DNA from: an uncultured delta proteobacterium
GTDB taxonomy: Bacteria > Desulfobacterota > Desulfobacteria > Desulfobacterales > UBA2156
DNA: 64,000 nucleotides
Direction: 5' to 3'
Assembly: GCA_963698465.1 (NCBI GenBank)
Contig: CAVOQY010000013.1
Coordinates: forward strand, 486,687-550,686
The position numbers were made by a program, and so were the translations under genes. Shown piece after piece: positions 5,996 through 35,737 of the stretch; position 1 is the first letter of the stretch, and each line of letters starts with the position of its first letter. The notes beneath the pieces are model-generated. The model ran no database searches and was not told the DNA's origin. It saw only the letters and a program-made list of their open reading frames with translations.

Positions 5996-7309
5996 ATGAT
6001 TCCAAGATATACCCGAAAAGTCATGGGGGACCTCTGGTCCGACGAGAACAAGTACCGGACCTGGCTCAAGGTGGAAATCTTCGCCTGCGAGGCCATGGCC
6101 AAGATGGGGAAGATCCCCGAAGAGGCCCTGAGAATCCTTCAAAAAAAAGCCGCGTTCTCGGTGGAGCGGATCGCGGAGATCGAGGAGAAGACCAAGCACG
6201 ACGTCATCGCCTTCACCACCAGCGTCGCGGAACACGTGGGCCCGGCCGCCCGGTACCTCCACATGGGGCTGACCTCGTCGGATGTCCTGGATACCAGCAT
6301 GGCGGTCCTGTTGAAAGAGGCCGGAAAAATCATCCTGAAAGGCCTCGACGGGCTCATGGAAGCCATCAAGGAACGGGCGCTGGAACATCAAAACACGCCC
6401 ATGATCGGCCGCTCCCATGGAATCCATGCGGAGCCGATCACCTTCGGCCTCAAGCTGTCGGTGTGGTACGATGAAATGCGCCGCAACAAGAAGCGGTTCC
6501 AAAGCGCGGTGAAAACCATCGCTTACGGAAAGATCTCCGGCGCCGTCGGGACGTTTGCCAACACTTCCCCCGAAATCGAAGCCTATGTGTGCAGGAAACT
6601 GGGGCTGAAACCGGCCCCGGCATCCACCCAAATCATCCAGCGGGACCGGTACGCCGAATACTTTGCCGCCCTGGCCATCATGGGGGCTTCCATCGAAAAG
6701 ATCGCCGTGGAAATCCGGCACCTGCAGCGCACGGAAGTCCTCGAGGCCGAAGAATCCTTCGCCAAAGGCCAGAAAGGTTCATCGGCCATGCCCCATAAAC
6801 GAAACCCGGTGGGTTCGGAGAACCTGTCGGGCCTGGCGCGTCTTCTGAGAACCAACGCTTTGGCGGCGATGGAAAACATCTGCCTGTGGCATGAACGGGA
6901 CATCAGCCACTCCTCCGTAGAACGCGTCATCGCACCCGACAGCACCATTCTGATGGACTACATCCTCCACCGCATGACCGCGATCCTTTCAAATCTTAAG
7001 GTGTATCCCGAAAACATGAAGTCCAATCTCCACCGGCTCAAGGGCCTGATCTTTTCCCAGCAGGTGCTTCTGGCGCTGGTGGACGTCGGGGTGTCGAGGG
7101 AAGAGGCTTACGGCTGGGTTCAGGAAAACGCGATGATCGCCTGGCGACGAAAAAAAGATTTCAAGCAATTGATCTCAAAGGACAAACGGATCCTTCGGCA
7201 CCTGTCACGGAAAAAAATCGAGGAACTGTTTGACGTCAATTACCATTTAAAGTATATCCCGGCCATTTTTGAGCGCGTTTTCGGCAAGAGGAGACCGCGT
7301 GAAAATTAG
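5996..7309 (+). CDS. purB: adenylosuccinate lyase
   Basis: MIPRY start, GRSHGIHAEP, signature GSSAMPHKRNP, WHERDISHSS. Confidence 0.97.
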   Translation: MIPRYTRKVMGDLWSDENKYRTWLKVEIFACEAMAKMGKIPEEALRILQKKAAFSVERIAEIEEKTKHDVIAFTTSVAEHVGPAARYLHMGLTSSDVLDTSMAVLLKEAGKIILKGLDGLMEAIKERALEHQNTPMIGRSHGIHAEPITFGLKLSVWYDEMRRNKKRFQSAVKTIAYGKISGAVGTFANTSPEIEAYVCRKLGLKPAPASTQIIQRDRYAEYFAALAIMGASIEKIAVEIRHLQRTEVLEAEESFAKGQKGSSAMPHKRNPVGSENLSGLARLLRTNALAAMENICLWHERDISHSSVERVIAPDSTILMDYILHRMTAILSNLKVYPENMKSNLHRLKGLIFSQQVLLALVDVGVSREEAYGWVQENAMIAWRRKKDFKQLISKDKRILRHLSRKKIEELFDVNYHLKYIPAIFERVFGKRRPREN

Positions 7310-18880: not shown

Positions 18881-19942
18881 ATGGCAAAAATCGATTTCGG
18901 CGGAGTGCTGGAAGAAGTCACCACCGCAGAAGAGTTTTCGATGGAAAAGGCCCGGACGGTCCTGAAGGACGAAACCGTCGCCGTTCTCGGTTACGGCGTT
19001 CAAGGCCCGGGACAGGCCCTCAACCTGCGCGACAACGGGGTCCGGGTGGTGGTGGGGCAGCGGGAAGGAACCGCCTCCTGGGACAAGGCGGTCTCCGACG
19101 GTTTCGTTCCCGGAAAGACCCTTTTTCCTCTTGAAGACGCCGCCCGAAAAGGAACGGTCGTCCAGTACCTGCTCTCCGACGCAGGACAGATGGCCCTGTG
19201 GCCCAAGGTCAAGCCCTGCCTCACTCCGGGCAATGCCCTTTACTTCTCCCACGGCTTTTCCATCACCTACCGGGATCAGACCGGTGTGGTGCCTCCCCCG
19301 GATGTGGACGTCATCCTGGTGGCGCCCAAGGGCTCCGGCCGCACCGTGCGCACCAATTTCCTGGACGGGAGCGGAATCAACTCCAGCTACGCCGTTTTCC
19401 AGGACTTTACGGGCAGGGCCGAAGAACGGACGCTCGCCCTGGGGATCGCCATCGGTTCAGGGTACCTCTTCCCCACGACCTTTGAAAGGGAAGTCTACAG
19501 CGACCTGACCGGCGAGCGAGGCGTGCTGATGGGCTGCCTGGCCGGCGTCATGGAGGCCCAATACACCGTGTTGAGAAAGAATGGACATAGCCCCAGCGAG
19601 GCGTTCAACGAAACCGTGGAAGAGCTCACCCAGAGCCTGATCCGCCTGGTCGCGGAAAACGGCATGGACTGGATGTTCGCCAACACCAGCACTACCGCCC
19701 AGCGGGGAGCGCTCGACTGGTCCCCGCGCTTTAGAGATGCCGTGCTGCCGCTTTTCGAAACCCTTTATAAAAGTGTGATCGCCGGGAAAGAAACCCGCCG
19801 GGTCCTGGAAGCCAACAGCCACCCCGACTACCGGAAACACCTGGACAAGGAACTGGAAGCAATCCGAAAATCAGAGATGTGGAAGGCCGGAACCGCCGTA
19901 AGGGCCCTGAGGCCCGAAAACCGAAGTGTCCGGGGAAAATAA
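18881..19942 (+). CDS. ilvC: ketol-acid reductoisomerase (Bacteroidota/fungal Ilv5-like type)
   Basis: GYGVQGPGQALNLRDNG, VAPKG, SDLTGERG, AFNETVEE, STTAQRGA. Confidence 0.95.
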   Translation: MAKIDFGGVLEEVTTAEEFSMEKARTVLKDETVAVLGYGVQGPGQALNLRDNGVRVVVGQREGTASWDKAVSDGFVPGKTLFPLEDAARKGTVVQYLLSDAGQMALWPKVKPCLTPGNALYFSHGFSITYRDQTGVVPPPDVDVILVAPKGSGRTVRTNFLDGSGINSSYAVFQDFTGRAEERTLALGIAIGSGYLFPTTFEREVYSDLTGERGVLMGCLAGVMEAQYTVLRKNGHSPSEAFNETVEELTQSLIRLVAENGMDWMFANTSTTAQRGALDWSPRFRDAVLPLFETLYKSVIAGKETRRVLEANSHPDYRKHLDKELEAIRKSEMWKAGTAVRALRPENRSVRGK

Positions 19943-19995
19943 AGCGCCTTGGACCGGACGCCTGTTTGAAGCCCCGGCATCAGGAGAAACCGACC

Positions 19996-21609
19996 ATGAA
20001 ATCGATCCTTTTGTACGACACCACCCTCAGAGACGGGACCCAGGGGGAGAACATCAATTTCAGCGCCAAGGACAAAGTGGCCGTCGCCAAACGCCTTGAC
20101 CGCTTCGGGATCCATTATATCGAAGGCGGGTGGCCCGGCTCCAACCCCAAAGACAAGCAGTTTTTCGAGATGGCCCGGGATATTGCCTTCCAGCAGGCCA
20201 AGCTTACGGCCTTCGGCGCCACACGCCGGGCGGGAGTTGCCGCAGAAGACGACGAGAACCTCCGGGCGATCCTGGAAAGCAGTACGCCTGCGGTGACGGT
20301 TTTCGGAAAGAGCTGGACGCTGCATGTGAAAGAAGTGATGGAAAACAGCCTTGAGGAAAACCTCGCGATGATCCGGGACACGGTCCAATATCTTTCGAAC
20401 GAGGGCCGAGAGGTGATCTATGACGCCGAACATTTCTTCGACGGATACAAGAAAGATGCACCCTATGCCCTGGAAACGCTTTCCGCCGCCATTCAAGGGG
20501 GGGCAAAAAGCCTGGTTTTGTGCGACACCAACGGCGGCACGCTCCCCCACGAAATCGAGACCGCCGTCCAGGAGGTACGAAACCGCATCTTTGGAAAAGA
20601 CGCCTCCGGAAAGACCAAGGAATCCCTCGTCGTGGGCATCCATGCCCACAACGACTGCGGTCTTGCCGTGGCCAATTCCCTGGCGGCGGTGCGGGCCGGC
20701 GCCGCCCTGGTGCAGGGAACCGTCAACGGTTACGGGGAACGGTGCGGGAACGCCGATCTCATTTCCCTTATCCCTGTGCTGACCCTCAAGCTCAATCGCC
20801 CCTGCATCCCGCCGGAAAACCTTTCGCAGATCAAAAGGCTTTCCCGCTTCGTGAGCGAAACCGCCAACATCGTTCCCCTGAACAGCCGGCCCTTCGTGGG
20901 GAAAAGCGCCTTTGCGCACAAAGGGGGCATCCACGTGAGCGCCATCATGAAGGTCCCCCGGGCTTACGAGCACATAGACCCCCAGCTCGTGGGCAACCAC
21001 CGGCGGGTCCTCGTTTCGGATCTTGCCGGGAAAAGCAACATCGAATACAAGGCACGGGAACTTGGCATCGCGTTGGGGGGAAACGGCCACGACAGCCGCG
21101 AGATCGTCTCCAGGATCAAGGACCTCGAGCAGGACGGCTATCAGTTTGACGCAGCCGAGGGCTCGTTCCGGATCCTGGTCCAAAAGCTCACCGATCAGTT
21201 CCGTCCCCTCTTCGAGCTCGAATCCTTCCGGGTGACCATCGAAAAAAACCGCGACGAACCGTGCAGCGCCCACGCCACCATCAAGATCTCCGTGGGTGGG
21301 AAACAGGAAATCACCGCTGCGGAAGGCGACGGGCCGGTCAGCGCCCTGGACAACGCCCTGAGAAAGGCGCTTCAGACCTTCTTTCCGGAAATCCACGACA
21401 TGCATCTGGTCGACTTCAAGGTCCGCGTCATCGACGGGCGGGAAGGGACCGCATCGAAAGTGCGCGTGCTCATCGACTCCCGGGATCAGGATCATATCTG
21501 GAGCACCATCGGCGTTTCCAAGGATATCATCGAGGCGAGCTGGAAAGCCCTGGAGGACAGCTTCCAGTACAAACTTTCCACGAATACATCCGATGACGAG
21601 GGATTCTAA
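19996..21609 (+). CDS. cimA: citramalate synthase
   Basis: DTTLRDGTQGE, YIEGGWPGSNPK, FGKSW, DAEHFFDGY, HKGGIH, LAGKSN; LeuA-type dimer domain. Confidence 0.9.
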   Translation: MKSILLYDTTLRDGTQGENINFSAKDKVAVAKRLDRFGIHYIEGGWPGSNPKDKQFFEMARDIAFQQAKLTAFGATRRAGVAAEDDENLRAILESSTPAVTVFGKSWTLHVKEVMENSLEENLAMIRDTVQYLSNEGREVIYDAEHFFDGYKKDAPYALETLSAAIQGGAKSLVLCDTNGGTLPHEIETAVQEVRNRIFGKDASGKTKESLVVGIHAHNDCGLAVANSLAAVRAGAALVQGTVNGYGERCGNADLISLIPVLTLKLNRPCIPPENLSQIKRLSRFVSETANIVPLNSRPFVGKSAFAHKGGIHVSAIMKVPRAYEHIDPQLVGNHRRVLVSDLAGKSNIEYKARELGIALGGNGHDSREIVSRIKDLEQDGYQFDAAEGSFRILVQKLTDQFRPLFELESFRVTIEKNRDEPCSAHATIKISVGGKQEITAAEGDGPVSALDNALRKALQTFFPEIHDMHLVDFKVRVIDGREGTASKVRVLIDSRDQDHIWSTIGVSKDIIEASWKALEDSFQYKLSTNTSDDEGF

Positions 21610-21630
21610 GATCCCCAAGGAGGTACAGGC

Positions 21631-23169
<1,539 letters not shown>

Positions 23170-23239
23170 AAAGCCGAACCGGCAACCCCGGCTTCCTGTG
23201 AAATTGTCGAAAGAACCCGGGGGTCTTTGAAAAAAGCCC

Positions 23240-23286
23240 TTGACTTCCCTTAAACATGAATATAAATTCATGATTATTATTTCATT
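23240..23286 (+). promoter_or_regulatory. usp operon promoter (TTGACT -35) with tandem operators CATGAA-N6-TTCATG (23255-23272) and CATGAT-N6-TTCATT (23269-23286)
   Basis: Direct reading. The same pair of motifs recurs at 29405-29450. Confidence 0.7.
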
Positions 23287-23329
23287 TTAAATTTTCCTGA
23301 GGCCAGGATATCCTCAAAGGAGGATCGTC

Positions 23330-23764
23330 ATGTTTAAGACCATTTTATACCCCACGGATTTCTCTGAGGTCGCCGCCAAGGCCCTGGATTACATCAAACA
23401 GCTCAAGGAAGCAGGTTCCCAGAAAGTCATCGTTTTGCATGTATTCGATGAAAGGGGGCTTCAGGCCGTCAAGGGCTATTTTCCCACCCAGTTTCCAGAG
23501 TTGATCCAAAATCGAATCGAAGACATAACAAAACAGCTCAAAAAGGTGGAAAAAGAGCTGGCCGATAGCGGCTTTTCCGTCGAGGCAAGGATCCAAAAAG
23601 GGATACCCTTCAGGGAGATATTGCAGGCCGAGGAAAAAGAGAGTATTTCCGTCATTGTCATCGGATCCCACGGCAGAAGCAACCTCGAGGAGGTGTTTCT
23701 CGGATCCGTATCCGACAAAGTCGCCAGGAAAAGCAAAAGCCCGGTCCTGATCATCAAGAGGTAA
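23330..23764 (+). CDS. universal stress protein (Usp)
   Basis: ILYPTDFSE, IVIGSHGRS, LGSVSDKV, PVLII. Confidence 0.95.
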   Translation: MFKTILYPTDFSEVAAKALDYIKQLKEAGSQKVIVLHVFDERGLQAVKGYFPTQFPELIQNRIEDITKQLKKVEKELADSGFSVEARIQKGIPFREILQAEEKESISVIVIGSHGRSNLEEVFLGSVSDKVARKSKSPVLIIKR

Positions 23765-23817
23765 ATTTTTCCGGACGTACTCGATGTCTCACAGGCTCTT
23801 TTCCTGAGGATCTGTTC

Positions 23818-25125
23818 ATGGGTTCAAATGCCTTCATTGCCATCGCCGTTTTCGCTGTTGTCTATTTACTCATTTCGCTTGAGTGGCTGAACAAGGCGGT
23901 AGCCGCTGTTCTGGGCGTCATCGTCCTGATTGCCCTTCGTGTTACGGATGTCCATTCCGCAGCCGCCCACATCGATTTTGAAACCCTCATGCTCTTGATC
24001 GGGATGATGGGGATCGTCAGCGTTTTGAAAAAATCGGGATTTTTCACCCTCACAACGGTCAGAATCGCGAAACTCACTCGAGGGCAACCCCTTAGAGTCA
24101 TGATCCTGTTCTGTGCCACCACCGCGGTGCTTTCCGCTTTTCTCGACAATGTGACCACGGTCCTCATCATGGTCCCCATTATCATCGAGCTCACCCTGGG
24201 CATGGGTCTTGATCCAAAAATCTACGTCATCGCCGTGGCCATGGCCTCAAACTTGGGCGGCACGGCCACCCTCGTGGGAGACCCGCCCAACATCATCATC
24301 GGTTCAAAGGTCGGTCTGAGCTTCAATCAGTTTTTGGCCTACCTCCCCTTACCGGTCATCGTGAGCACGGTGGGCGTGATGGCCTATTTCTGGGCGACGA
24401 ACCGAAAAAGCTTCAAGTCCATCGATGACAACCTGCCCCAGCTGTTTTCCGTTCAGCTGCTGATCGAAAAGATCGAGTTCGATTTCCTGTCTGTCCGGAT
24501 CGACCGCAGGTTTCTGATAAAAAGCCTGGCGTGCCTGGGAATTGCCATGCTCCTCTTCGTGACACAGACCCTCACCCGGCTGTCCCCCGGGGTGGTGTCC
24601 CTCGGTGTCGCGATGGTGCTTTTCATGATCACCCGGATGGAAATCGAGCAGGTCCTCATGGAGATCGAATGGAGCACCCTTCTCTTTTTCGCCGGACTTT
24701 TTATCCTGGTCGGAACCCTGGAGGAAAACGGCGTCATCGAATGGGTCGCCCGCAACATCTTCCTTCAGGTGGGCAGCAATCCTTATCTCATGACGCTGAT
24801 GGTTTTGTGGGTTTCAGGTATCGCCTCCGGATTCATCGACAACATACCGTTTACCATCACCATGATCCCCATCATCCAAATGATGCTGGCCACGAATCCT
24901 GTCCCTCACCATATTTTATGGTGGGCCCTTTCCCTGGGCGCCTGTTTCGGGGGGAATCTTACCCTGATCGGTGCCTCTGCAAATATCGTATCCGTGGGCA
25001 TGATGAAAAAATACGGGCAGCATATCACCTTTGCGGAATACACGCGAAAAAGCGCCCCAGGGACAGTCCTCTCCCTGCTCTTTGCTTCTGTCGTTCTGGT
25101 CCTCTACTTGTGGATTTTCCTATGA
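23818..25125 (+). CDS. ArsB/NhaD/SLC13 (ion transporter superfamily) permease
   Basis: SAFLDNVTT, SNLGGTATLVGDPPNIII, DNIPFT, GGNLTLIGASAN. Confidence 0.88.
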   Translation: MGSNAFIAIAVFAVVYLLISLEWLNKAVAAVLGVIVLIALRVTDVHSAAAHIDFETLMLLIGMMGIVSVLKKSGFFTLTTVRIAKLTRGQPLRVMILFCATTAVLSAFLDNVTTVLIMVPIIIELTLGMGLDPKIYVIAVAMASNLGGTATLVGDPPNIIIGSKVGLSFNQFLAYLPLPVIVSTVGVMAYFWATNRKSFKSIDDNLPQLFSVQLLIEKIEFDFLSVRIDRRFLIKSLACLGIAMLLFVTQTLTRLSPGVVSLGVAMVLFMITRMEIEQVLMEIEWSTLLFFAGLFILVGTLEENGVIEWVARNIFLQVGSNPYLMTLMVLWVSGIASGFIDNIPFTITMIPIIQMMLATNPVPHHILWWALSLGACFGGNLTLIGASANIVSVGMMKKYGQHITFAEYTRKSAPGTVLSLLFASVVLVLYLWIFL

Positions 25126-25997
25126 ACGAGGTTAAAAACCAAGCCCTGTACCGCCTGATCCGGGAATATTTGTATGCCATGGGCACCTCCCGTACCACCG
25201 TCGTTGCAATCCAATCCTACATCGACGCGATCCGGAGGCTCCGATGTACGCCTGGCGCTTTCAAAGGTAACCTTCTGGAGCTCGGTGAGATTATCAAAAG
25301 GACCGAGCCCCAGGTAACCCCGCTGGTTCTCCTGATTGAACAGTTTAATGCTGAAATTCAACGGCAGCCAAACGGGGATTTGGAATCCGCCAAGGTCAAA
25401 TCGGTCGAAATCCTCTCGAGCTTGTTGAAGCGGTTCGAAGACGACACGGAAAAACTCTCCCGAAACTGCATGAACTGTATCGAATCCGGCGATTTCATCG
25501 TCGCCCATTCTTCCACCGCTTACATACGAAACGCTTTTGCCCGCGCCTTTTCCGAATTGAACCGCAAATTCAAAGTTCTGGTCCTAAAACAGGACTTCCT
25601 GCGCACCAAGGACCTGATCAACATCCTTGAAAGCCATAGAGTCGACCACCTCCTGATTCCCGAATACAATCTGAGCCACTTTCTAAAAGACACAAACAAG
25701 CTTTTCATCGGGGCGGTGTCGGTGACCGCTGATCACAAAGCCGTGGCAGGAATCGGAACCGCCAATGTGGTCAGTCTGTGCCATTCCCATAACGTGCCGG
25801 TGTACCTATTCGTCGAAACGATCAAGTTTTCTCACACGACCCTGCCGGAGCACCACATTTACAAAGAAGAAAAAGAGAAGATCGAATCCGATTATCCCTT
25901 TCGCATCACCACTTTTTCACATGATTTCATTGACTTGGGCATGGTCGATCACCTCATCACCGAAAACGGGGAAATGGCAGAAAAACCGGGTTCATGA
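25122..25997 (+). CDS. IF-2B family (eIF2B alpha/beta/delta, ribose-1,5-bisphosphate isomerase-like) protein
   Basis: ATG overlaps the permease stop (ATGA). Helical N-domain, then a Rossmann-like domain: GDFIVAHSST, FIGAVSV, IGT, ETIKF, DHLITENG. Confidence 0.75.
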   Translation: MNEVKNQALYRLIREYLYAMGTSRTTVVAIQSYIDAIRRLRCTPGAFKGNLLELGEIIKRTEPQVTPLVLLIEQFNAEIQRQPNGDLESAKVKSVEILSSLLKRFEDDTEKLSRNCMNCIESGDFIVAHSSTAYIRNAFARAFSELNRKFKVLVLKQDFLRTKDLINILESHRVDHLLIPEYNLSHFLKDTNKLFIGAVSVTADHKAVAGIGTANVVSLCHSHNVPVYLFVETIKFSHTTLPEHHIYKEEKEKIESDYPFRITTFSHDFIDLGMVDHLITENGEMAEKPGS

Positions 25998-26093
25998 ACC
26001 CGGGAAAGCACCGCGCGGCTGCCTGGAGTCAAGAGGTGTTCAGGGCGGTCTTATCCAAGGTATTGCCGGGAGGATCAGCGGTGATTTTTTCAT

Positions 26094-27447
26094 ATGAAAC
26101 ATACCCTTTTACGACGCCTTTCCCCGGAACGGCTTTTCATCTTGAGCTTCATTGCCCTCATCCTGACGGGAGCCGTTCTGCTGCGGATGCCCGCCGCGGC
26201 ATCAAACCAACCCCTGTCCTTTCTTGACGCCGTATTCACTTCGGCGTCGGCCGTGTGCGTCACCGGGCTGGCGGTGATCGGGGTCGGACAAGACCTTTCA
26301 GCCTATGGTCAGGGGGTGACACTGGCCCTGTTCCAGTTGGGGGGGCTGGGAATCATCACCTACTCCGCAATGTTCTTCGTCATGATCGGCCGGGGACTGG
26401 CTACCCGGGAACGGGACATCCTCCAGTCCGTATTCCTGGGGGAACCGCGCCGCGATATTACCGCCATTCTCAAATTCGTGCTGGTCTCCACCGCCTGTTT
26501 CGAGGCGGCCGGTACCCTGCTTCTCTGGGTGCGCTTCTGCAGGGACTTGTCGCCCGGCCAGGCGCTCTTCAGGGCGGTCTATCACTCCGTTTCGGCTTTC
26601 AATAACTGCGGATACGCGCTGTTTCCGGACAGTCTCATGTCTTTTCAGGGGGACCTCCTGGTCAACGCCACGGTGATGACGCTTATCGTCGCAGGCGGCA
26701 TCGGTTTCATCGTGCACTTTGAACTTGTCATGCGCCTTCGGGGTCGCCAGCGGCATCTTTCTGTGCATACCAAGATCGTCCTGATCGCCACAGCGGCTTT
26801 AATCGTTTCCGGAGCCCTCCTCTTCTTTGCCTTCGAGCACAAGGGAATCCTGAAAGGATTGCCGTTTCAGAGCCAGGTCCTGGCTTCCCTGTTCCAATCC
26901 ATAACCGCACGCACCGCCGGATTCAACACAGTGGAAATCGCACAGTTAGGCAACCCCACCCTCCTGATGATTCTGCTGATGATGTTTATCGGCGCCTCGC
27001 CGGGGTCAACCGCCGGGGGCGAAAACCACCAGTGCGGCCCTGCTCTTCCTGCTGTTGTGGAGCCGCGCCAAGGGCCGGGAAGAGGTAACCGTATTCAACC
27101 GCACCATTCCCCGGGAATTGCTGAACCGAATGGTTTCCATCCTTCTGGCATCTACCCTGTCCATCGTTTTGATCACGTCGGTGGTCCTGGTCGTGGCCGA
27201 CGATATCCCCCTGCCGGGTCAAAGTCGTCATCTGTTCGTTGAATACTTTTTTGAGACGGTTTCGGCTTTCGGCACCGTGGGGCTGTCCATGAACGTGACC
27301 CCGGGTCTCAATGCGCCGCAGAAGGTTTCAATCATGCTGATGATGATTGCCGGCCGGGTGGGGCCTCTGACGCTGGCGTTTTCGCTTGCTCGAACCGCGC
27401 GCCGGAAACAACTCATTTACGCGGAAGAAGGGGTCATCGTGGGTTAA
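26094..27447 (+). CDS. ktrB: KtrB/TrkH potassium uptake permease, frameshift at ~27021
   Basis: SAVCVTGL, SAFNNCG, TARTAGFN, GASPGSTAGG, then KTTS...FETVSAFGTVGLS...GRVGPLT in the next frame. Confidence 0.88.
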
Positions 27448-27459
27448 GGAGGGCTCATC

Positions 27460-28106
27460 ATGAAGCGTATCATCGTCTTCGGACTCGGCATCTTCGGCTT
27501 TGAGCTGGCCGTTGAGCTGTCCGGAAAGGGTATCGAAGTCATCGCAATCGACAAAAACAAGGACGCCGTCCAAAGAATCAAGGACACCTGCGCCAAAGCC
27601 ATCGTGGCCGACGCTACGGAAAAGGGGCTCCTGGAGTCCATCGGCATGGATAAGAACGACATCGCCGTCATTTCCTTTGGCGAGGACCTTTCGGCCAGCA
27701 CCCTTCTCACGCTGCATCTCAAGGAACTGGGCGTCCAGACGGTCATTGTCAAGGTCCCCAACGACGATCACCGGCGCGTCTTGAAAAGCTAGGGGCGAGC
27801 GAAGCCATCATCCCCGAGCGGGAGATGGCCGCAAAAATCGCCCGCAGTATCGTTTCCCCCAATGTGCTGGATTACCTGCCCATCTCCGAGGATTACACCA
27901 TCTGTGAGCTGGCGCCCCCTTCGGCCTTTGTCGGCAAAAGCCTTGCCGACTTGGACTTGCGAAAAAAGCACCAGATTCAGGTTATCGCTGTTCGAGACGT
28001 CCTCTCAGACAAACTGCAACTGGTACCGCGGGCAAGCACGGTGATCAAGGACAGTGATGTGCTGGTGATCATCGGCCGGGAGAAGGATATCAACCGGATC
28101 AAATGA
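27460..28106 (+). CDS. ktrA: KtrA/TrkA RCK regulatory subunit, frameshift at ~27783
   Basis: GLGIFG NAD-binding RCK_N. Adding one G (TTG GAA AAG CTA GGG) restores LEKLGASEAIIPE and joins RCK_C (27825-28106). Confidence 0.88.
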
Positions 28107-28201
28107 CAGCCAAGAAAACGAACGCAACTTCCCTTTTCCTGCAAATCGGCGAAGCCTTTTGGAAGCTTCGCGACATCGGATTCGGGTTTTCCTCGCCTGA
28201 T

Positions 28202-28918
28202 CTATTTTCTCCCCAGCCGCAATCCGATGAGTCCGATTTCAAACAGCAGATAAAGGGGAAGTCCCATCAGAATCATGTTCAGGGCGTCCGGGGTCGGCGT
28301 CAAAATTGCCGCAATGATCGCTGCAGCCAGAACCGCGTAGCGACGGTGGGAAGCCAGAAATTGCGCCTTCACCAGGCCGATTCTACCCAGCAGAGTCATT
28401 GCGATGGGCAACTCAAAAATAATCCCGAAACCGAATAAAAAAGCCAGACAGAAAGAGACGAACTTTTTCACGGATATCAGGGCTTCGAGGCGCTCACTTT
28501 CATAGCCCAGCAAGAACTGGGCACCGTAGGGCAGCGAGACGGTCAGACAGAAGAGCATGCCGGCATAGAAAAACAAGATGGATGCAAACCAGTATCCGAT
28601 CATGCTTTTTCGGGAAAAAGAAGGGAAAAGTGGCGGCAAAGCGGCCAGCACCGCGTAGAGAATATACGGAATGCTGGCAAAGACACCGATTCCCAGCCCC
28701 AGAAGCAAAAACGAAAAGAAGGCCTCTGGAATGCCGAAGGCCACCAACTTGACGCCGGTGATCTGCTGAACGTATTTCAGGATCGGTTCGGCAACACAGT
28801 AGCCACCGATTGAAAAGCCAAAAACGACGATGCCGATTCGAATCAAAGAGGCCCGAAAAGACTCGAGGAAGGCCAGAATTCGCTTGGGCTCCTGAAGGGA
28901 TTTGTCCGAAATGTTCAT
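28202..28918 (-). CDS. tatC: divergent TatC-family membrane protein
   Basis: Six TM segments, FGIIFELP, RRYA, LTPTPD, LYLLFEIG. The N-terminal signature is degenerate. Confidence 0.75.
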   Translation of the reverse strand: MNISDKSLQEPKRILAFLESFRASLIRIGIVVFGFSIGGYCVAEPILKYVQQITGVKLVAFGIPEAFFSFLLLGLGIGVFASIPYILYAVLAALPPLFPSFSRKSMIGYWFASILFFYAGMLFCLTVSLPYGAQFLLGYESERLEALISVKKFVSFCLAFLFGFGIIFELPIAMTLLGRIGLVKAQFLASHRRYAVLAAAIIAAILTPTPDALNMILMGLPLYLLFEIGLIGLRLGRK

Positions 28919-28940
28919 CTTTTGACGCTTCTTTGTCTGT

Positions 28941-29237
28941 TCAAGCCCGCTTCAGTTTGGTTTTTTCACTCGTTAGAACCTTCAACAAGTTGCCCACCAA
29001 TTTATCGCGCTGACTCAAGTGCCGAAGCGGCATAGACAACTCGATGCTGTATCGGATCCTTCTGCCGTCCTTTTGCTTGCGGATATACCCCGCAACCTCC
29101 AGATCCCTGATGATTTTTCGGACCGCGCGTTCGGTGATGCCTACGTTCAAGGCAAGGTCTCGAGCGGTGATATTGGGGTGCGTGGACATAAAACTGAGGA
29201 CCACGGCATGATTGGTAACAAAAGTCCATTCGGCCAT
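28941..29237 (-). CDS. small winged helix-turn-helix transcriptional regulator
   Basis: WTFVTNHA N-terminus, HTH TARDLALNVGITERAVRKIIRDLE, wing KDGRRIRY. Confidence 0.85.
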   Translation of the reverse strand: MAEWTFVTNHAVVLSFMSTHPNITARDLALNVGITERAVRKIIRDLEVAGYIRKQKDGRRIRYSIELSMPLRHLSQRDKLVGNLLKVLTSEKTKLKRA

Positions 29238-29375
29238 CGGACACCTCTCTGATGCCTATTTTGACGACTGGATTAATTTCCCCTTCACTTTTTCACTTCA
29301 AAGGCCACTATAGGTCTTCCTGACAGCACTTTTCAAGCAAAAGAGCCCCCTTCCATTCAAGGGATTAAAAACATC

Positions 29376-29450
29376 TTGACAGGGCATCCTAATTGGAATT
29401 ATTACATGAAATATTATTCATGTAAATAATTACATGATTATCTTTTCATT
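29376..29450 (+). promoter_or_regulatory. dctM promoter (TTGACA) with operators TTACATGAA-N6-TTCATGTAA (29402-29425) and CATGAT-N6-TTCATT (29433-29450)
   Basis: Perfect 9-bp-arm palindrome in the wHTH/dctM divergent region; same motif family as at 23255. Confidence 0.72.
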
Positions 29451-29544
29451 TTTTATAAAATTTCTGTTTTTAGGAGCCTATAACCTGCGGAAGCTCAAGC
29501 CGTCTTGATACAAAGGCGGGGGATCGCAGGGGTTCTGAAGGAGG

Positions 29545-30879
29545 ATGAGCATCTTGGATCTGAGCGTGATCATCATCCTGTTGGTGCTGCTCGGAGCGAT
29601 GGCGGCCTATATCCCCGTTTACATCTGTCTTTTTTTCACGGGCGCAATTGGCTTTGTCCTCTTCGCTCCGGAAACTCAAACCCTGATGCTCGTGGAGAGT
29701 TTTTTCAAGAGCATGGACAACTTCGCGCTGGTGGTGGTGCTGTTCTTCATTCTTTGCGGCAATATCATGACCGCCGGCAGCATCGTGGACAAGCTGATCA
29801 AAATGGTCAACACGCTGGTCAGCTGGCTTCCCGGCGGGCTGGGAATGGCCGGCTGCCTGGGCTGCGGCCTGTTCGGGGCGATTTCCGGTTCTACGGTGGC
29901 CACCGTGGTCGCCCTGGGCGGTTTTATGATCCCCGCACTGATTAAAAACGGCTATCCCATGAAATACACCCTCGGCCTGATGACCACGTCCCCGAATCTG
30001 GGAATCATCATCCCGCCGAGCATCAGCATGATTCTTTATTGCATGATCACCAATGTCTCGCTTCAGGGGCTTTTTCTGACGGGTTTCGTCCCTGGGATTC
30101 TAGTCATGCTGCTGGTATGCCTCTATTCGTATTTCATGTTCCGGACCGACGAGGGCATTGTACGCCTTCCGGTACCGAACTTAAAGGAATTCCTGGCTGT
30201 CTTCAAAGAGGGCTTCTGGTCGCTGATGCTGCCTGTGATCATTTTTGCAGGAACGTTCTCAGGGATGTTCACGGCCGACGAAGCGGCCGTGGTGGCCTGC
30301 ATCTACGCTTTCATCGTGGAGCTGTTCATCCATCGAACCATGAAAATCAAGGATGTGAAGAAAGTCATCGTCAGTTCGGCTGTCACCTCGGCCACGCTTC
30401 TGATCATCGTGGCAGGCGCCACCTGCTTCGGCCGCTACCTGACCTTCGAGAATGTGCCCTCAAGGATCGCCGAGTCCGTCATCGAAAACATCCATTCCCC
30501 CTTGATGTTTCTCCTGGCGATCAACTGCTTCCTGCTGGTGGTCGGCATGTTCATGGACGTGATTTCGGCAACGCTGATCATCGGGCCGGTGTTGATCCCC
30601 TTGCTTCCCACCTTCAATGTGGACTTCATGCACTTCGGGTTGCTGATGACGGTGAACCTCGCCATCGGCTACTGCACGCCGCCGGTGGGGGTCAGCATGT
30701 ATATCACGGGCGCGATGGCCAACAAGGACATCCTCTACGTCACCCGGGCCGTGCTCCCTTTCTTGATCATCCAGATCGCCGTGTTGCTTTTCATGACCTA
30801 TCTGCCGGATGTGGTGCTGTGGCTGCCCAAGCTGATGGGGTTTTGGGAGGCCACTGAGGGCGGCACACCGGCGCTTTAG
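29545..30879 (+). CDS. dctM: TRAP transporter large permease DctM (no adjacent dctP/dctQ)
   Basis: FGAISGSTVATVVA, GIIIPPSI, PGIL, ADEAAVVA, TPPVG. Confidence 0.9.
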   Translation: MSILDLSVIIILLVLLGAMAAYIPVYICLFFTGAIGFVLFAPETQTLMLVESFFKSMDNFALVVVLFFILCGNIMTAGSIVDKLIKMVNTLVSWLPGGLGMAGCLGCGLFGAISGSTVATVVALGGFMIPALIKNGYPMKYTLGLMTTSPNLGIIIPPSISMILYCMITNVSLQGLFLTGFVPGILVMLLVCLYSYFMFRTDEGIVRLPVPNLKEFLAVFKEGFWSLMLPVIIFAGTFSGMFTADEAAVVACIYAFIVELFIHRTMKIKDVKKVIVSSAVTSATLLIIVAGATCFGRYLTFENVPSRIAESVIENIHSPLMFLLAINCFLLVVGMFMDVISATLIIGPVLIPLLPTFNVDFMHFGLLMTVNLAIGYCTPPVGVSMYITGAMANKDILYVTRAVLPFLIIQIAVLLFMTYLPDVVLWLPKLMGFWEATEGGTPAL

Positions 30880-31889
30880 ATCCCAGCACCACGGTAAAAA
30901 TCTGCAAGGCTTTCAACCAGGCGGGCCATGAAATCGAAATCCAGGATTTCTAAAGTGTCCGTGGCACGGTGATAATGGGGGTTGCGGAAAAACGCCGAGT
31001 CGGTGACCATCACGGCCGGAAATCCCATGTCCCAAAACGAGGCATGATCGCTGAGCCGCACGGAAGGCATTATCCAGCCGTTAAAAGGAACCCAGAGAGA
31101 AACCACCGGGAGACGCCGGCTGCGGTGAAAGCTGCGTTCCAGTTGTTGTGCAAAATCACGGGAGCCGAAATTGCCGACAATGCCGATGAAATCCCCCGTC
31201 TTGGGATACCCGAAAAACCCCAACGGAAAGGGGTAACGCTGACATCCGGGTTCATGACAGGTGTATCCGACCATTTCCAGGCAGATCATGCCGTCGATGG
31301 CCGCCTTTTCCCTGCGGGCGGCGGCGGCGTGCACCCGGCTTCCCATGAAACGGGTTCCGAAAACCGGCGGTTCTTCAAGGGCAAAGCCGACGAAGGTCAC
31401 CGAAACCTCCGAAGGCTCCCTTTCCGCCAAAACCCTGGCCGTCTCCAGCATGACGGCCACCGCACTGGCGTTGTCGTCCGCGCCGACGGTGCCGGCCACC
31501 GAGTCATAATGAGCCCCCAGGAGGTAATGAACCTGCGGCTCCCCTCTTCCCTTCAGTTTTGCCACCACGTTGCTCACCGTGTGGCTGCCGTATGTATAGG
31601 GCTCCAAGTGTACAGGGATGCCGATCTCTTCAAAAAAGGACCTGAGGTAAATGGCTGTTTGTTTCAGGTTTTCAGGCAGGGCCACACTGCGTTCGCCGAT
31701 GGTCCGGGTCAAGGTGTGGACATGAGCCCTAAGGCGTTCCACGACAATGGGTAAAGGGTCGGTCATGGCCTCTCCATCCGCAGCCGATGCGGCCGCAATT
31801 CGATTCAGCGGGGCTGTCGCGGCAGCCGACAGCAAACCTGCCGAAACGACCGCGAAGACCCACATTCGGACCTTTGAAAAAAAAGGCAT
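30876..31889 (-). CDS. M28 family metallopeptidase
   Basis: LLGAHYDS, GADDNASAVA, FALEEPP, LEMVG, SDHASF, NPHYH; possible signal peptide. Confidence 0.85.
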   Translation of the reverse strand: MPFFSKVRMWVFAVVSAGLLSAAATAPLNRIAAASAADGEAMTDPLPIVVERLRAHVHTLTRTIGERSVALPENLKQTAIYLRSFFEEIGIPVHLEPYTYGSHTVSNVVAKLKGRGEPQVHYLLGAHYDSVAGTVGADDNASAVAVMLETARVLAEREPSEVSVTFVGFALEEPPVFGTRFMGSRVHAAAARREKAAIDGMICLEMVGYTCHEPGCQRYPFPLGFFGYPKTGDFIGIVGNFGSRDFAQQLERSFHRSRRLPVVSLWVPFNGWIMPSVRLSDHASFWDMGFPAVMVTDSAFFRNPHYHRATDTLEILDFDFMARLVESLADFYRGAGI

Positions 31890-31992
31890 CGTTCAAGACA
31901 GGGCGGGGTTACGGGACCATCGGGCGTCCGGTTTCCATCTTGAGATACAACTCCCGAGGCAAAAACGCCCTTTTCCCGGAAAGGATCGAAAA

Positions 31993-32649
31993 TCAAGACG
32001 GATGAACTTCGAAATAGGCCTCCTTGCCGCCGCCGAAGGCAACCATCGTATCCGATGCAAGGCGAAGGCCCTGCGCGATGTGCCGCGCCTCAATCCCGGG
32101 TACGGCATATCCGTAAAACAGGACGTCTTTCGTATCCTCCCCCACCCGGGTTTTTTCATCCGCACCCTGGCAGAGAATGCAGACAATCTCTTTTTCATCC
32201 CTGAGGACGATCTCCCCCTGCCGGGTCTTCAGGTCTTGTCCGCCCATGCCCCTGCAGGGTTCACCCTCCCGGACGATGTCGAGGGTCAATGCGCCGTCAA
32301 AGCGGTTGAAGTCCGTCACGGCCACCAGGATACCGGCGCACATCTCGGCCATGAAATGGGCGTCCACCATGAGGTCGTACCGGGGAAATCCGCTTTGGAC
32401 GGTCCTTTTCAGGTGCTTGGGAAGGGGGCAGTCGAAACCGAAGCAGTGGAAAAACCGATCATAGGTTTCAATCCTTTGGGTGATCGCCTCCAAGGTCTCT
32501 CGTCTTCTCATCTGTCTGAGGTGCTTTCTTTTATACAGGTCAAAGCCTTCGGGATTGGCGGGATTCAGGCATCCGGTGATCAGGGTGAGGCCGAAAGATA
32601 CACCCGGAAACCTTTTTCGGTAAGCGGGGGTAATGGAAAAATGCACCAT
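31993..32649 (-). CDS. stand-alone B3/4 domain (PheRS beta editing-like) protein
   Basis: D..FDGALTL...GE...G, GEIVLRDEKEI, ADEKTRVGEDTKDVLF...VPG pattern. Confidence 0.65.
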   Translation of the reverse strand: MVHFSITPAYRKRFPGVSFGLTLITGCLNPANPEGFDLYKRKHLRQMRRRETLEAITQRIETYDRFFHCFGFDCPLPKHLKRTVQSGFPRYDLMVDAHFMAEMCAGILVAVTDFNRFDGALTLDIVREGEPCRGMGGQDLKTRQGEIVLRDEKEIVCILCQGADEKTRVGEDTKDVLFYGYAVPGIEARHIAQGLRLASDTMVAFGGGKEAYFEVHPS

Positions 32650-32782
32650 CTGTTCTTCCTCTTTGCGGTTTTTCCCAGCGTTGATGCTATACCCGTTTTT
32701 GCGTCACTGTGCAATTCCGGCCGCCTTCAGCCGGCAGAAGCGTTGCAGCGGCAAACTGCCGGCAGCCAGACCCCCAGGTTGC

Positions 32783-32863
32783 GCTGTGATCCCTTTTTTG
32801 ATCATCCAGATCGCCGTCTTACTTCACATGGCCTGCCTGACGGATGTGGTGCTGTGGCTGTCC
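32783..32863 (+). pseudogene. decayed duplicate of the dctM 3' end
   Basis: Ungapped match to 30748-30828 at 69/81 nt; encodes AVIPFLIIQIAVLLHMACLTDVVLWLS. Confidence 0.85.
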
Positions 32864-32962
32864 GAATATTTTCGCATTCACCGGACGGTGCCTCCTGGTC
32901 TATAAATTGCGCGCCGGCGGGTTTTTTGATAGATACCGCAAAAATCATGGATTGGACCTTTC

Positions 32963-33775
32963 ATGCAGACTGAAACGACCCCTAAATGGCGCCATCGACT
33001 TCATGACATCATCTTCGAGGCCGATACCCCTGCGGGGAAGGCCTTCGACGTGGCCCTGATCCTTTGTATCATCTTCAGCGTGGCCGTGGTGATGCTGGAC
33101 AGCATTTCGGCCGTCAGGTTCCGGTATGGAAGCGTGCTGCTCGCCCTGGAATGGCTGTTTACGATCCTTTTCAGCATCGAATACGTTTTAAGGCTCCTGA
33201 CCGTTTACAGGCCCCTCAGTTACGCGGTCAGCTTTTTCGGCGTCATCGACCTCCTGGCGGTGCTCCCCACCTATCTCAGCCTTTTTTTCCCGGGAAGCCA
33301 GGTCCTGATCGTCATTCGTCTGCTCCGGGTGCTGCGGATATTCCGGGTATTGAAGCTCGCCCATTACCTGGGGGAATCCATGCAGCTGATGCGGGCCCTG
33401 AAAGCCAGCCGGCGGAAGATTACCGTATTTCTATTTTTCCTCCTGACCATCGTCTCCATCATGGGGTCGGTCATGTACCTCGTGGAAGGTCCGGAGAGGG
33501 GGTACACCAGCATTCCGATAAGTATTTACTGGGCCATCGTGACCCTCACCACCGTGGGGTACGGGGACATCTCTCCCCAGACGCCCCTGGGTCAGGCTGT
33601 TGCCTCAGTCATCATGATCCTGGGGTATGCCATCATTGCGGTTCCCACCGGCATCGTCACCACGGAGATGACCAAGATTTCCCGAAGCGTCGACAACCGT
33701 GCTTGTCCCGCCTGCAGCGCCGAGGGGCACGACAACAGCGCCAAGCACTGCAAGTTCTGCGGGGCCGAGCTCTGA
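32963..33775 (+). CDS. voltage-gated potassium channel (6TM, KvAP-like) with C-terminal Cys4 motif
   Basis: S4 IRLLRVLRIFRVLK, filter TTVGYGD, CPAC...CKFC. Confidence 0.92.
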   Translation: MQTETTPKWRHRLHDIIFEADTPAGKAFDVALILCIIFSVAVVMLDSISAVRFRYGSVLLALEWLFTILFSIEYVLRLLTVYRPLSYAVSFFGVIDLLAVLPTYLSLFFPGSQVLIVIRLLRVLRIFRVLKLAHYLGESMQLMRALKASRRKITVFLFFLLTIVSIMGSVMYLVEGPERGYTSIPISIYWAIVTLTTVGYGDISPQTPLGQAVASVIMILGYAIIAVPTGIVTTEMTKISRSVDNRACPACSAEGHDNSAKHCKFCGAEL

Positions 33776-33803
33776 AACGCTTTGCGAGAAGCGGAGAAAC
33801 TTC

Positions 33804-35054
33804 ATGACTTTGGAAAAAGCCCTTGTTCTGACGGTTTTCGTCGCCTGTTACGGACTGGCGCTCAGCCGGAAGATCAAAATCGCCTATGCCTCCCTGGGAG
33901 GGGCCGCCATCCTGCTGCTCACCGGGGTGCTGCACCCGTCCGACGCCCTTTTCAAGGCCGTCAAGTGGGATGTGCTGGGCATCTACTGGGGCTTCATGAT
34001 GGTCTCCTTCCTCTTCATGAAAAGCCGCATGCCCGAGCTCATCGCCAACCGGATCCTGATGCGGGTGAAGCAGGAGAGATACGCTGTCTTCGCCCTTTGT
34101 GCCCTGACCGCTTTTTTATCGGCCTTCATGGAGAACGTTGGGGTGGTGCTCATGATGGCCCCCGTGGCCATCGCTGTCAGCCGGCGAATGGGGTCCGATC
34201 TTTTTCACTACATGATAGCCATTGCCATCAGTTCCAACGTGGTCACCACCCTGACCATGGTGGCCGATCCGCCTTCCATCATCCTGGCCATGGAAACCGG
34301 CATGAAGCCGCTCGATTTCTATTTCTTTCAGAGCCGCCCCGGACTGGGAACCCTCACCTTTATCGGGGTGCTGACGGCACTGGCCGTTCTGCTGTTCCAG
34401 TTCCGGCGCAGGATTAAAAAGGTCGAGGTCCAACACGAGCCCATTCCCGTAACCCATGGGGCGTCGGTGCTCTTTGTGCTGGGCGTCGCCGCCCTGGTCA
34501 TCGGGCCTGAATACGGCCTGCGCCCGGGGCTGGTGGGGCTCGGCGTCGGGGTGGTTTCGCTCTTCATGGGACGGGCCGATCTCAGGGAAATGGTGATGGA
34601 TTTTGACTGGAATTCCCTGCTCTTCATCCTGGGCGTCTTCGTGGTGATCTATGCCCTCAACGACTCGGGCCTGCTGAAGGATTTCGCCGACCTCGTGGTG
34701 GCCGCCGGCATCGACAGACCCGCTTTCCTGCTGGCCTTTCTAACCTGGATCTCGGTAGGGCTTTCTTCCTTCATGGACAACGTCCCTTACACCATCCTGA
34801 TGATCCCCGTGTGCCAGAACCTGGCGGCTTCCCTCGGCATGGACGCCTGGCCCTTGCTGTACGGCATGCTCATCGGTACGGGTATCGGGGGGAATGTGAC
34901 GCCCGTCGGCGCCACCGCCAACGTCTTCGCCTGCGGGATCCTCGAAAAGCACGGGCACAAGGTCCGGCTCGGACCCTACCTGAAGCTCAGCGTCCCCTTT
35001 TCGGTTGCGGCCGTGGCAGTTGCTCATCTTCTCCTTCAGCTTTTCTGGATGTGA
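33804..35054 (+). CDS. second ArsB/NhaD/SLC13-type permease
   Basis: SAFMENV, ADPPSIIL, DNVPYT, GGNVTPVGATAN. Confidence 0.85.
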   Translation: MTLEKALVLTVFVACYGLALSRKIKIAYASLGGAAILLLTGVLHPSDALFKAVKWDVLGIYWGFMMVSFLFMKSRMPELIANRILMRVKQERYAVFALCALTAFLSAFMENVGVVLMMAPVAIAVSRRMGSDLFHYMIAIAISSNVVTTLTMVADPPSIILAMETGMKPLDFYFFQSRPGLGTLTFIGVLTALAVLLFQFRRRIKKVEVQHEPIPVTHGASVLFVLGVAALVIGPEYGLRPGLVGLGVGVVSLFMGRADLREMVMDFDWNSLLFILGVFVVIYALNDSGLLKDFADLVVAAGIDRPAFLLAFLTWISVGLSSFMDNVPYTILMIPVCQNLAASLGMDAWPLLYGMLIGTGIGGNVTPVGATANVFACGILEKHGHKVRLGPYLKLSVPFSVAAVAVAHLLLQLFWM

Positions 35055-35173
35055 GCCCGCCGCTACCGGCACTGATCCCGGTGCTGGCGTTAAGGATCCT
35101 GATCCAAAGCAGGGAGCCTTCCCGCTTCCGGTCGAGGAAGCGAAATGAGGGGCCCGGCAAAAAGCCCGGAAGT

Positions 35174-35737
35174 CTACTTTCCGAGCATTCCCGCCTTGAG
35201 GCCTGAGTCCGCGGGCTTTTCCCCCAACCAGATGCCGAAGAGCGCCTTTTTGAAATCGAGGCCCGGAACGGTCCCTGTGCTCTTTTCGTTGATATACAGG
35301 GTGACGCCTGCTTCCGGCAGGTAGACCAGGTCGTACCGGTCCCCTTTTCGGGCTTTCTCCTTGAAAAGGGCATTGAAGGCCGAGATCCGGTCCTGGAGGG
35401 GCGCCGTCTGACCGCCGGTGGCAGCGGAAAATCCCTCGTTCCAGGTTTCCACCAGCTGCTCGGAGGTCACCCCGTCATAGATGAAATGCATCCGGATGGC
35501 CATGGGCTGGTCTTTCTGGATGACGGCCGCCGGATCGCTCTGCTTTTCCTTGAGGTAGAGGCCTGCCGCATAGACTTTGATGAACAGTTTCTTGCGCAGC
35601 CCGGTGCCGTTCAAAACCAGCTGGGTCTCTCCGGCGGACAGGGTGTCGGGGAGGCTGACACCGCCCACTTCCCCACCTTCCGCAGGACCAGCAACCAGCA
35701 TCAAAACCGCCAGTATGACCTGAACCAAGATCCGCAT
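35174..35737 (-). CDS. chalcone isomerase-like family exported protein
   Basis: Signal peptide, LVLNGTGLRKKLFIKVYAAGLYL, FKKALFGIWLGEKP. Confidence 0.85.
   Translation of the reverse strand: MRILVQVILAVLMLVAGPAEGGEVGGVSLPDTLSAGETQLVLNGTGLRKKLFIKVYAAGLYLKEKQSDPAAVIQKDQPMAIRMHFIYDGVTSEQLVETWNEGFSAATGGQTAPLQDRISAFNALFKEKARKGDRYDLVYLPEAGVTLYINEKSTGTVPGLDFKKALFGIWLGEKPADSGLKAGMLGK

Follow-up and report, generated by a model that had tools for sequence, protein, structure and literature searches.

The window analysed here, a 64,000-nt stretch of DNA from an uncultured member of the Desulfobacterales, encodes a TatC-family protein, TatC2, in which most of the residues that recognize the twin-arginine (RR) signal peptide are replaced, while T208, D211, E170 and E227, which anchor a TatA/TatB transmembrane (TM) helix or serve the TM5/6 mechanism, are retained. 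TatC2 is carried in addition to a canonical TatC, and from these residue states it almost certainly does something other than ordinary Tat signal recognition. The reading that we favour, although tentatively and with somewhat less than even confidence, is that TatC2 is a signal-blind protomer or module of the Tat system, analogous to the haloarchaeal TatCt. The positions of the features described below are listed in Table 1.

Table 1. Features of the window and of the compared loci (positions with an L prefix refer to the fetched loci, all others to the window)
Feature	Position	Strand	Basis or context
TatC2, membrane protein of 238 aa and six helices, TatC fold, RR-blind clade	28202..28918	-	ORF, Pfam, AF2, residue states
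Variable block of ~12 kb holding TatC2	23171..35189	.	Congener synteny, GC
wHTH regulator, 98 aa, HTH_24/MarR_2-like	28941..29237	-	Pfam
Perfect palindrome CATGAA-N6-TTCATG (putative operator)	29405..29422	.	Divergent wHTH/DctM control region
Related site CATGAT-N6-TTCATT	29433-29450	.	After the palindrome at 29405..29422
Second CATGAA-N6-TTCATG copy (putative operator)	23255..23272	.	Upstream of the Usp-CitMHS-IF2B-like-KtrB-KtrA row
TrkA_N ORF of the split ktrA/trkA	27460-27792	+	Frame differs from that of TrkA_C
TrkA_C ORF of the split ktrA/trkA	27825-28106	+	Frame differs from that of TrkA_N
DctM gene	29545-30879	+	Copy at C5:82296-83622
Canonical mltA-tatB-tatC	L001 19-2214		G000 contig C14
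SecDF/SecD-like paralog	L053 7960-10581	-	Upstream of TatC2
SecDF/SecD-like paralog	L054		Upstream of TatC2
SecDF/SecD-like paralog	L055 5135-6997	+	Upstream of TatC2
M16C/PreP-like peptidase of g99	L049 4004-7039	+	Directly upstream of TatC2; also in L051, L077 and L081

TatC2 is a full-length protein of the TatC fold

The TatC2 frame, as given by the ORF call and its translation, is intact over 238 codons. Against the Pfam TatC model PF00902, the protein scored 153 bits (E 1.3e-44; gathering cut-off 25.1), with residues 17-221 spanning positions 2-208 of the 208 in the model, and because the match is full-length, TatC2 is no chance ORF. Its score against the NCBIfam equivalog model TIGR00945, 126.7 bits, fell just under the cut-off of 132.7, and no model specific to the TatC2 clade was found in NCBIfam. 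The AF2 model, built from a 64-row alignment, had a pLDDT of 90.6 and a pTM of 0.84. When this model was compared with the PDB by Foldseek, TatC structures were the only significant matches, with TM scores of 0.78/0.82 to 4B4A, 0.72 to 9DZZ and ~0.7 to 9E01, and the model together with these matches indicated that TatC2 has the six-helix 'glove' fold of the family. In the ESM Atlas, the matches were likewise confined to TatC clusters of Thermodesulfobacteriota.

Residues for twin-arginine recognition are replaced and the mechanistic core is retained

The original prediction, made from the window alone, held that TatC2 had lost the twin-arginine recognition residues, with the HLxELR motif reading FLESFR and the WxFxxPxLxxxE loop altered, and that the C-terminal FELP, RRYA and TPTPD motifs were kept. 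Translation and alignments bore out each of these statements: FLESFR is found at residues 17-22, the loop reads LAALPPLFPSFS at residues 91-102, and the three C-terminal motifs are at 168-171, 192-195 and 207-211, respectively. In E. coli numbering, H12, E15, W92, F94 and E103 correspond to F17, S20, L91, A93 and S102 of TatC2, and these assignments agreed among the HMMER alignment to E. coli TatC (9DZZ), the BLASTP alignment to the canonical TatC of the host and a MAFFT alignment of 263 TatCs.

Structures of TatBC with substrate show that the first Arg of the signal bonds E15 through water and stacks under F94, that the second Arg is paired with E103 in a salt bridge and packs against Y100, and that the consensus Phe is held in a pocket of F94, H12 and L13; in E. 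coli TatC, the E103A substitution alone abolishes signal binding (PMC13323110). Four of the five residues in the recognition set (H12, E15, F94, Y100 and E103) are replaced in TatC2, the equivalent of Y100 being F98 or P99 depending on the alignment. As the alignment and the tree showed, this loss extends through the whole TatC2 clade, whose members carry S, A or T for E15, G, A or P for F94 and S, T or R for E103. Such variable small residues suggest that the site has been disabled, not that it has acquired a new, defined chemistry. The canonical sequences used for comparison were chosen by having E15, F94 and E103, so that their 100% conservation at these positions is by construction, and the independent evidence is therefore the split of the clades in the tree.

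Outside the recognition set, TatC2 retains R17 (R22), P48, E170 (E169), T208 (T207), D211 and E227, as well as the periplasmic cap motifs and two basic residues past the loop. T208, D211 and P-T-P-D were 100% conserved in the TatC2 clade, and E170 nearly so. In the known structures, E8 of TatB is bonded to the side chain of T208, and its backbone is bonded by Q215 (PMC13323110); the position of Q215 is L or M in the TatC2 clade, with an invariant N (N214) one residue earlier. One residue is inserted in the TM2-3 loop and another in TPTPD, and the loop carries a conserved motif of its own, consisting of L91 (100%), P96, L97, F98, P99 and the inserted F101, followed by RR.

TatC2 is a second TatC in the host and in nearly all other carriers

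Profile search of the host genome (15 contigs, 98% complete) returned two TatC matches. The stronger one, at 246 bits, is on contig C14 in the row mltA-tatB-tatC and bears HLEELR and FWMFVAPGLYQKE, and tatA is placed separately from this row, elsewhere on the same contig. Since a canonical TatC is present elsewhere in the genome, TatC2 is a paralog and not the sole TatC, so the proposal of an orphan paralog stands, as an unlinked second copy. TatC2 and the canonical TatC of the host are 35% identical by BLASTP, and a recent duplication of the host tatC was rejected on the basis of this identity and of the separate, well-supported clade described below. Absence of tatA and tatB had been predicted for the window and was found to hold for its whole contig, on which no TatA/TatB family member was found; the matches in the genome are on C14, with a weak one on C5. 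Nor was a dedicated TatA/TatB found for TatC2 in the carriers G000 (the host), G036 and G017, whose two TatA/B-family genes are those that non-carriers have as well. In genus g9 (L027, L064), TatC2 follows mltA without tatB, an adjacency that may be a trace of the paralog's origin or of an exchange.

The 41 other carriers sampled in the order gave a similar picture, as a full canonical TatC was found in 37 and a copy cut by a contig end in 2, with bit scores of 234-261 for canonical TatC vs. 131-167 for TatC2. The two remaining carriers, G301 (98% complete) and G354 (97% complete), gave a TatC2-type match only. Their lack of a canonical TatC may reflect incomplete assembly or genuine gene loss, and would bear on whether TatC2 can stand alone.

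TatC2 forms an old clade that is selectively maintained

TatC2 was found in 42 of 401 genomes and 14 of 155 genera sampled in the order, with genus occupancies such as 18/18, 4/5, 4/4 and 2/2. Across the phylum sample, a TatC2-like gene was present in 63 of 401 genomes and 29 of 256 genera, and two families were fully occupied (f84, 12/12; f92, 7/7). These samples hold one genome per species, and absence means not found among the genomes searched; TatC2 was not found in five congeners of the host, nor in the other eight genomes of its family. Beyond the genome samples, the family was found on >580 metagenome contigs, and >120 clusters share the residue losses of TatC2 at 53-75% identity.

Phylogeny was assessed with FastTree trees, given with local supports and rooted by a canonical outgroup or at the midpoint. 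In the tree of 154 rows, TatC2 was placed in a clade of 28 rows (support 100), which is nested in a clade of 50 rows (support 94) almost all without F94/E103, and the canonical TatC of the host grouped with those of its congeners elsewhere in the tree. The deeper clade includes Nitrospinota, Syntrophorhabdaceae and Desulfobacteraceae MAGs, every one labelled 'TatC'. On these trees, the TatC2 clade is old and separate from canonical TatC.

The dN/dS values of 15 TatC2 pairs ranged from 0.08 to 0.21, indicating that TatC2 is under purifying selection and selectively maintained. With an intact frame, these dN/dS values and fixation in whole genera, a pseudogene was rejected. The wider alternative, that TatC2 is either an ordinary second Tat receptor reading RR through compensating residues or a decaying, functionless copy, is very unlikely. 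The protein is annotated 'TatC' everywhere and keeps R17 and the two basic residues after the loop, as an ordinary receptor might; but it has lost four of the five recognition residues, among them E103, whose change to Ala alone suffices to abolish binding in E. coli (PMC13323110), and decay is at odds with the frame, the selection, the fixed occurrence in whole genera and the number of metagenome contigs. As the fold is kept and purifying selection acts on it, the original description of TatC2 as a repurposed TatC-fold protein is a fair one, although nothing points specifically to the membrane insertase that had also been suggested.

TatC2 in comparison with known TatC proteins

Like canonical TatC (E. 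coli 9DZZ/9E01; Aquifex aeolicus 4B4A/4HTS; PF00902), TatC2 is a six-helix protein of the same family and fold (TM ~0.8) that keeps FELP (E170), T208, D211, E227, P48, R17 and the periplasmic cap motifs. It differs in the replacement of H12, E15, W92, F94, E103 and Q215, in the insertions in TPTPD and the TM2-3 loop, in scoring under the TIGR00945 cut-off, in its location away from tatA/tatB and in being an extra copy. Bacillus subtilis has two parallel TatAC systems, in which TatCd and TatCy both keep the RR site and each has an adjacent tatA; the TatC2 host resembles it in having two TatC paralogs per genome, whereas TatC2 has neither the RR site nor a tatA of its own. To our knowledge, the haloarchaeal TatCt provides the only natural signal-blind TatC units proposed so far. 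TatCt is a 14-TM double TatC, both units of which are without F94/E103, and was proposed to depend on the RR-competent TatCo, with which it would form asymmetric complexes (PMC13673990). It is the closest functional analogy to TatC2, both being TatC units without F94/E103 that coexist with an RR-competent TatC. However, TatCt is a fused tandem with two linker helices that adjoins tatCo, is essential and is archaeal, whereas TatC2 is a single 6-TM unit, unlinked, patchy in distribution, bacterial and of an independent clade, with the canonical tatBC on another contig.

A literature search found no description of the TatC2 clade. The bacterial double TatCs of Chloroflexota and Bacillota covered in a 2026 review all keep the RR site (PMC13673990), so the TatC2 clade appears undescribed. 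What Simone et al. (2013) give is limited to a list of delta-proteobacteria that have two tatC loci.

By analogy with TatCt, TatC2 as a signal-blind Tat protomer would have no receptor role for RR signal peptides, yet the TatA/TatB helices of the housekeeping system would still dock to it, whether TatC2 shares trimers with canonical TatC or forms complexes of its own. In the Tat core complex, such a protomer would alter how many binding sites are active or how these behave, and TatC2 would be a bacterial, unfused and unlinked counterpart of the role proposed for TatCt. This reading is consistent with the loss of H12, E15, F94 and E103 from the RR pocket beside the retention of T208, D211, E170 and E227 in the TatA/TatB anchor or the TM5/6 mechanism, and with the canonical TatC kept by nearly all carriers and no extra TatA/B in G000, G036 and G017. 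The fold, purifying selection, the old separate clade and fixation in some genera and families also agree with it, and TatCt offers a precedent for RR-blind units that need an RR-competent partner (PMC13673990). On the other side, TatC2 is unlinked to tatBC and patchy, unlike TatCt/TatCo, which suits an optional accessory better than a core subunit; the change of Q215 to L/M may alter TatB docking; the conserved motif of the loop could mean a new ligand; and G301 and G354 show TatC2 only.

The first structures of the Tat core (2025-2026) raise the questions of whether the TatC trimer uses all three of its signal sites and of where asymmetry comes from. TatC2 is a natural mutant that lacks exactly the recognition residues and keeps the main TatA/B anchor, and it is suited to co-expression with E. 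coli TatABC in tests of mixed complexes, site number and TatA recruitment. Moreover, the automatic annotation 'TatC' hides a distinct protein family and so makes Tat systems in Desulfobacterota appear more numerous than they are.

Gene neighbours of TatC2 at other loci

In the clade of the window's TatC2, no universal neighbour was found across 13 genera and >100 loci, in which genes were called by longest-ORF heuristics. The upstream gene on the same strand is a CLC channel in the closest relatives (g28), MltA in g9, an M16C/PreP-like peptidase in g99, fused SecDF in g126 and g60 (twice), acetyl-CoA hydrolase in g104 and ComM in g33, and the downstream genes encode TctA, a Na/Ca exchanger, a CitMHS-like protein, a HEAT-repeat protein or proteins of unknown kind. 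In the two genera concerned, the extra paralog is either fused SecDF of 873-880 aa or a SecD-like protein of 620 aa, its gene lies 44-58 nt ahead of TatC2 in the same orientation, and the genomes with fused SecDF also retain housekeeping secD/secF. The peptidase of g99 is of the presequence-protease type and ~1000 aa long.

The original prediction had offered TatC2 as a possible assembly factor for the neighbouring transporters. Because the neighbours differ between genera, this idea found no support, and the pairing with the wHTH gene was also unique to the host among the loci sampled. Stated for the adjoining genes, a dedicated insertase or assembly factor for KtrAB, the CitMHS permease and DctM is highly improbable. 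Transporters do recur beside TatC2, with KtrA/B here, CLC in g28, a Na/Ca exchanger in g18 and g99, a CitMHS-like protein in g99 and TctA in g67; but their families vary by genus, many loci have soluble-enzyme neighbours (ComM, acetyl-CoA hydrolase, MltA, TruA), and congeners have the same transporter families without TatC2. By a rough count, ~5/13 genera have a transporter in one of the four flanking positions, which we roughly estimate to be close to chance in such transporter-rich genomes, and transporter adjacency was therefore dropped as a functional signal.

Export-related neighbours bear on another explanation, in which TatC2 and the housekeeping TatA (perhaps with TatB) would form a separate translocase or insertase for a signal other than the twin-arginine one, e.g., a signal-anchor carried by certain membrane or exported proteins. 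We regard this as unlikely, though it accounts for several features: the mechanistic core (T208, D211 and E170) is retained, the TM2-3 loop is remodelled with a one-residue insertion yet conserved in its own way, export-tied genes recur (fused SecDF in two genera, the M16C/PreP-like peptidase in another), and TatC has been described as an ancient signal-peptide insertase (PMC13673990). Nevertheless, the signal-contact positions hold variable small residues with no new conserved group, neither a candidate substrate class or common signal nor a dedicated TatA was identified, and the export-related neighbours occur in only 3 of ~13 genera.

In a sister clade (60 rows), the neighbourhood is more uniform. 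At 29 metagenome loci, the gene next after TatC2 (median gap 2 nt) encodes a HAMP histidine kinase with two TM segments, and a sigma54 response regulator often comes after the kinase; divergently oriented upstream of TatC2 are a Ddl-like ATP-grasp gene and a PAS kinase. Examples include L087, L088, L090, L113, L116 and L120, in which TatC2 is at ~6000-6700. The N-termini of the sister-clade kinases have in common a W-[IV]-R...GLK[TA]KI stretch ahead of TM1.

TatC2 of the host is placed in a variable block with a putative local regulon

Congeners are collinear with the window at 19000-23170 and again from ~35190 on, and the span between these flanks is 3.7-9 kb in them vs. 12 kb in the host. 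Parts of this block have a GC content of 0.51-0.52, vs. ~0.58 around it, and we infer that TatC2 reached the host genome in the variable block. One row of the block encodes Usp, a CitMHS permease, an IF-2B-like protein, KtrB and KtrA, and TatC2 and the wHTH gene are convergent with it; DctM, an M28 peptidase, a 408-aa ORF and an ion channel are divergent from the wHTH gene. The wHTH gene, predicted to lie ~20 nt ahead of TatC2, ends 22 nt before it, and the two are probably co-transcribed. The wHTH protein has no sensor domain, and no homolog of it was found beside TatC2 at any other locus sampled.

The palindrome CATGAA-N6-TTCATG has only two matches in the window, vs. 0.23 expected. The copy between the wHTH and DctM genes overlaps promoter-like hexamers on both strands, and both copies are downstream of TTGAC (a -35 box) and followed by a related half-palindrome (23255-23286; 29405-29450). 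From this arrangement, the palindromes look like operators of a local wHTH regulon, and TatC2 is probably co-expressed in the host with the regulator of a small ion/solute/stress regulon. As the likely wHTH operators also front the Usp/permease/KtrAB row and DctM, production of TatC2 may be tied to some specific ionic or stress condition.

The same arrangement also bears on a signalling accessory role, in which TatC2 would be a membrane co-sensor, tether or anti-regulator, acting for the wHTH regulator here and for the HAMP kinase and sigma54 regulator in the sister clade. The tight spacing of TatC2 and kinase at the 29 sister-clade loci, often with the sigma54 regulator next, argues for it, as does the position of the host TatC2 directly after a sensorless wHTH gene whose putative palindromic operators mark a local regulon; the reading of TatC2 as a signal-blind protomer leaves these couplings unexplained. 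All the same, we consider a signalling role improbable. In the clade of the window's TatC2, no regulator is conserved as a neighbour, and among the loci sampled the wHTH gene is paired with TatC2 in the host only; the sister clade has little depth, and common descent instead of function may account for its synteny; and genomes of this kind abound in kinases and sigma54 regulators. A signalling role would also leave the retention of T208/D211/E170 unexplained. It is possible, if rather doubtful, that many Desulfobacterota (~1/6 of the sampled species) run a two-receptor Tat system, in which a signal-blind TatC2 works with TatA/TatB and possibly canonical TatC, or that TatC2 couples the state of the membrane or of export to transcription via the kinase in the sister clade and the wHTH regulator here. 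Either would represent a new functional class of bacterial TatC, which the 2026 review sought but did not find.

Two further observations concern the genes around TatC2. The ktrA/trkA gene is split into a TrkA_N and a TrkA_C ORF in different frames; the TrkA_C frame extends upstream as EKLGASEAIIPERE, and a change of one base (+/-1) in the A-run near 27783 would join the ORFs, so that the split reflects a genuine frameshift or, alternatively, a sequencing error in the homopolymer. The DctM gene has a 76% identical DNA copy on contig C5 of the host and copies of 72-78% identity in congeners, and in view of these copies elsewhere, the DctM gene of the block is an extra paralog.
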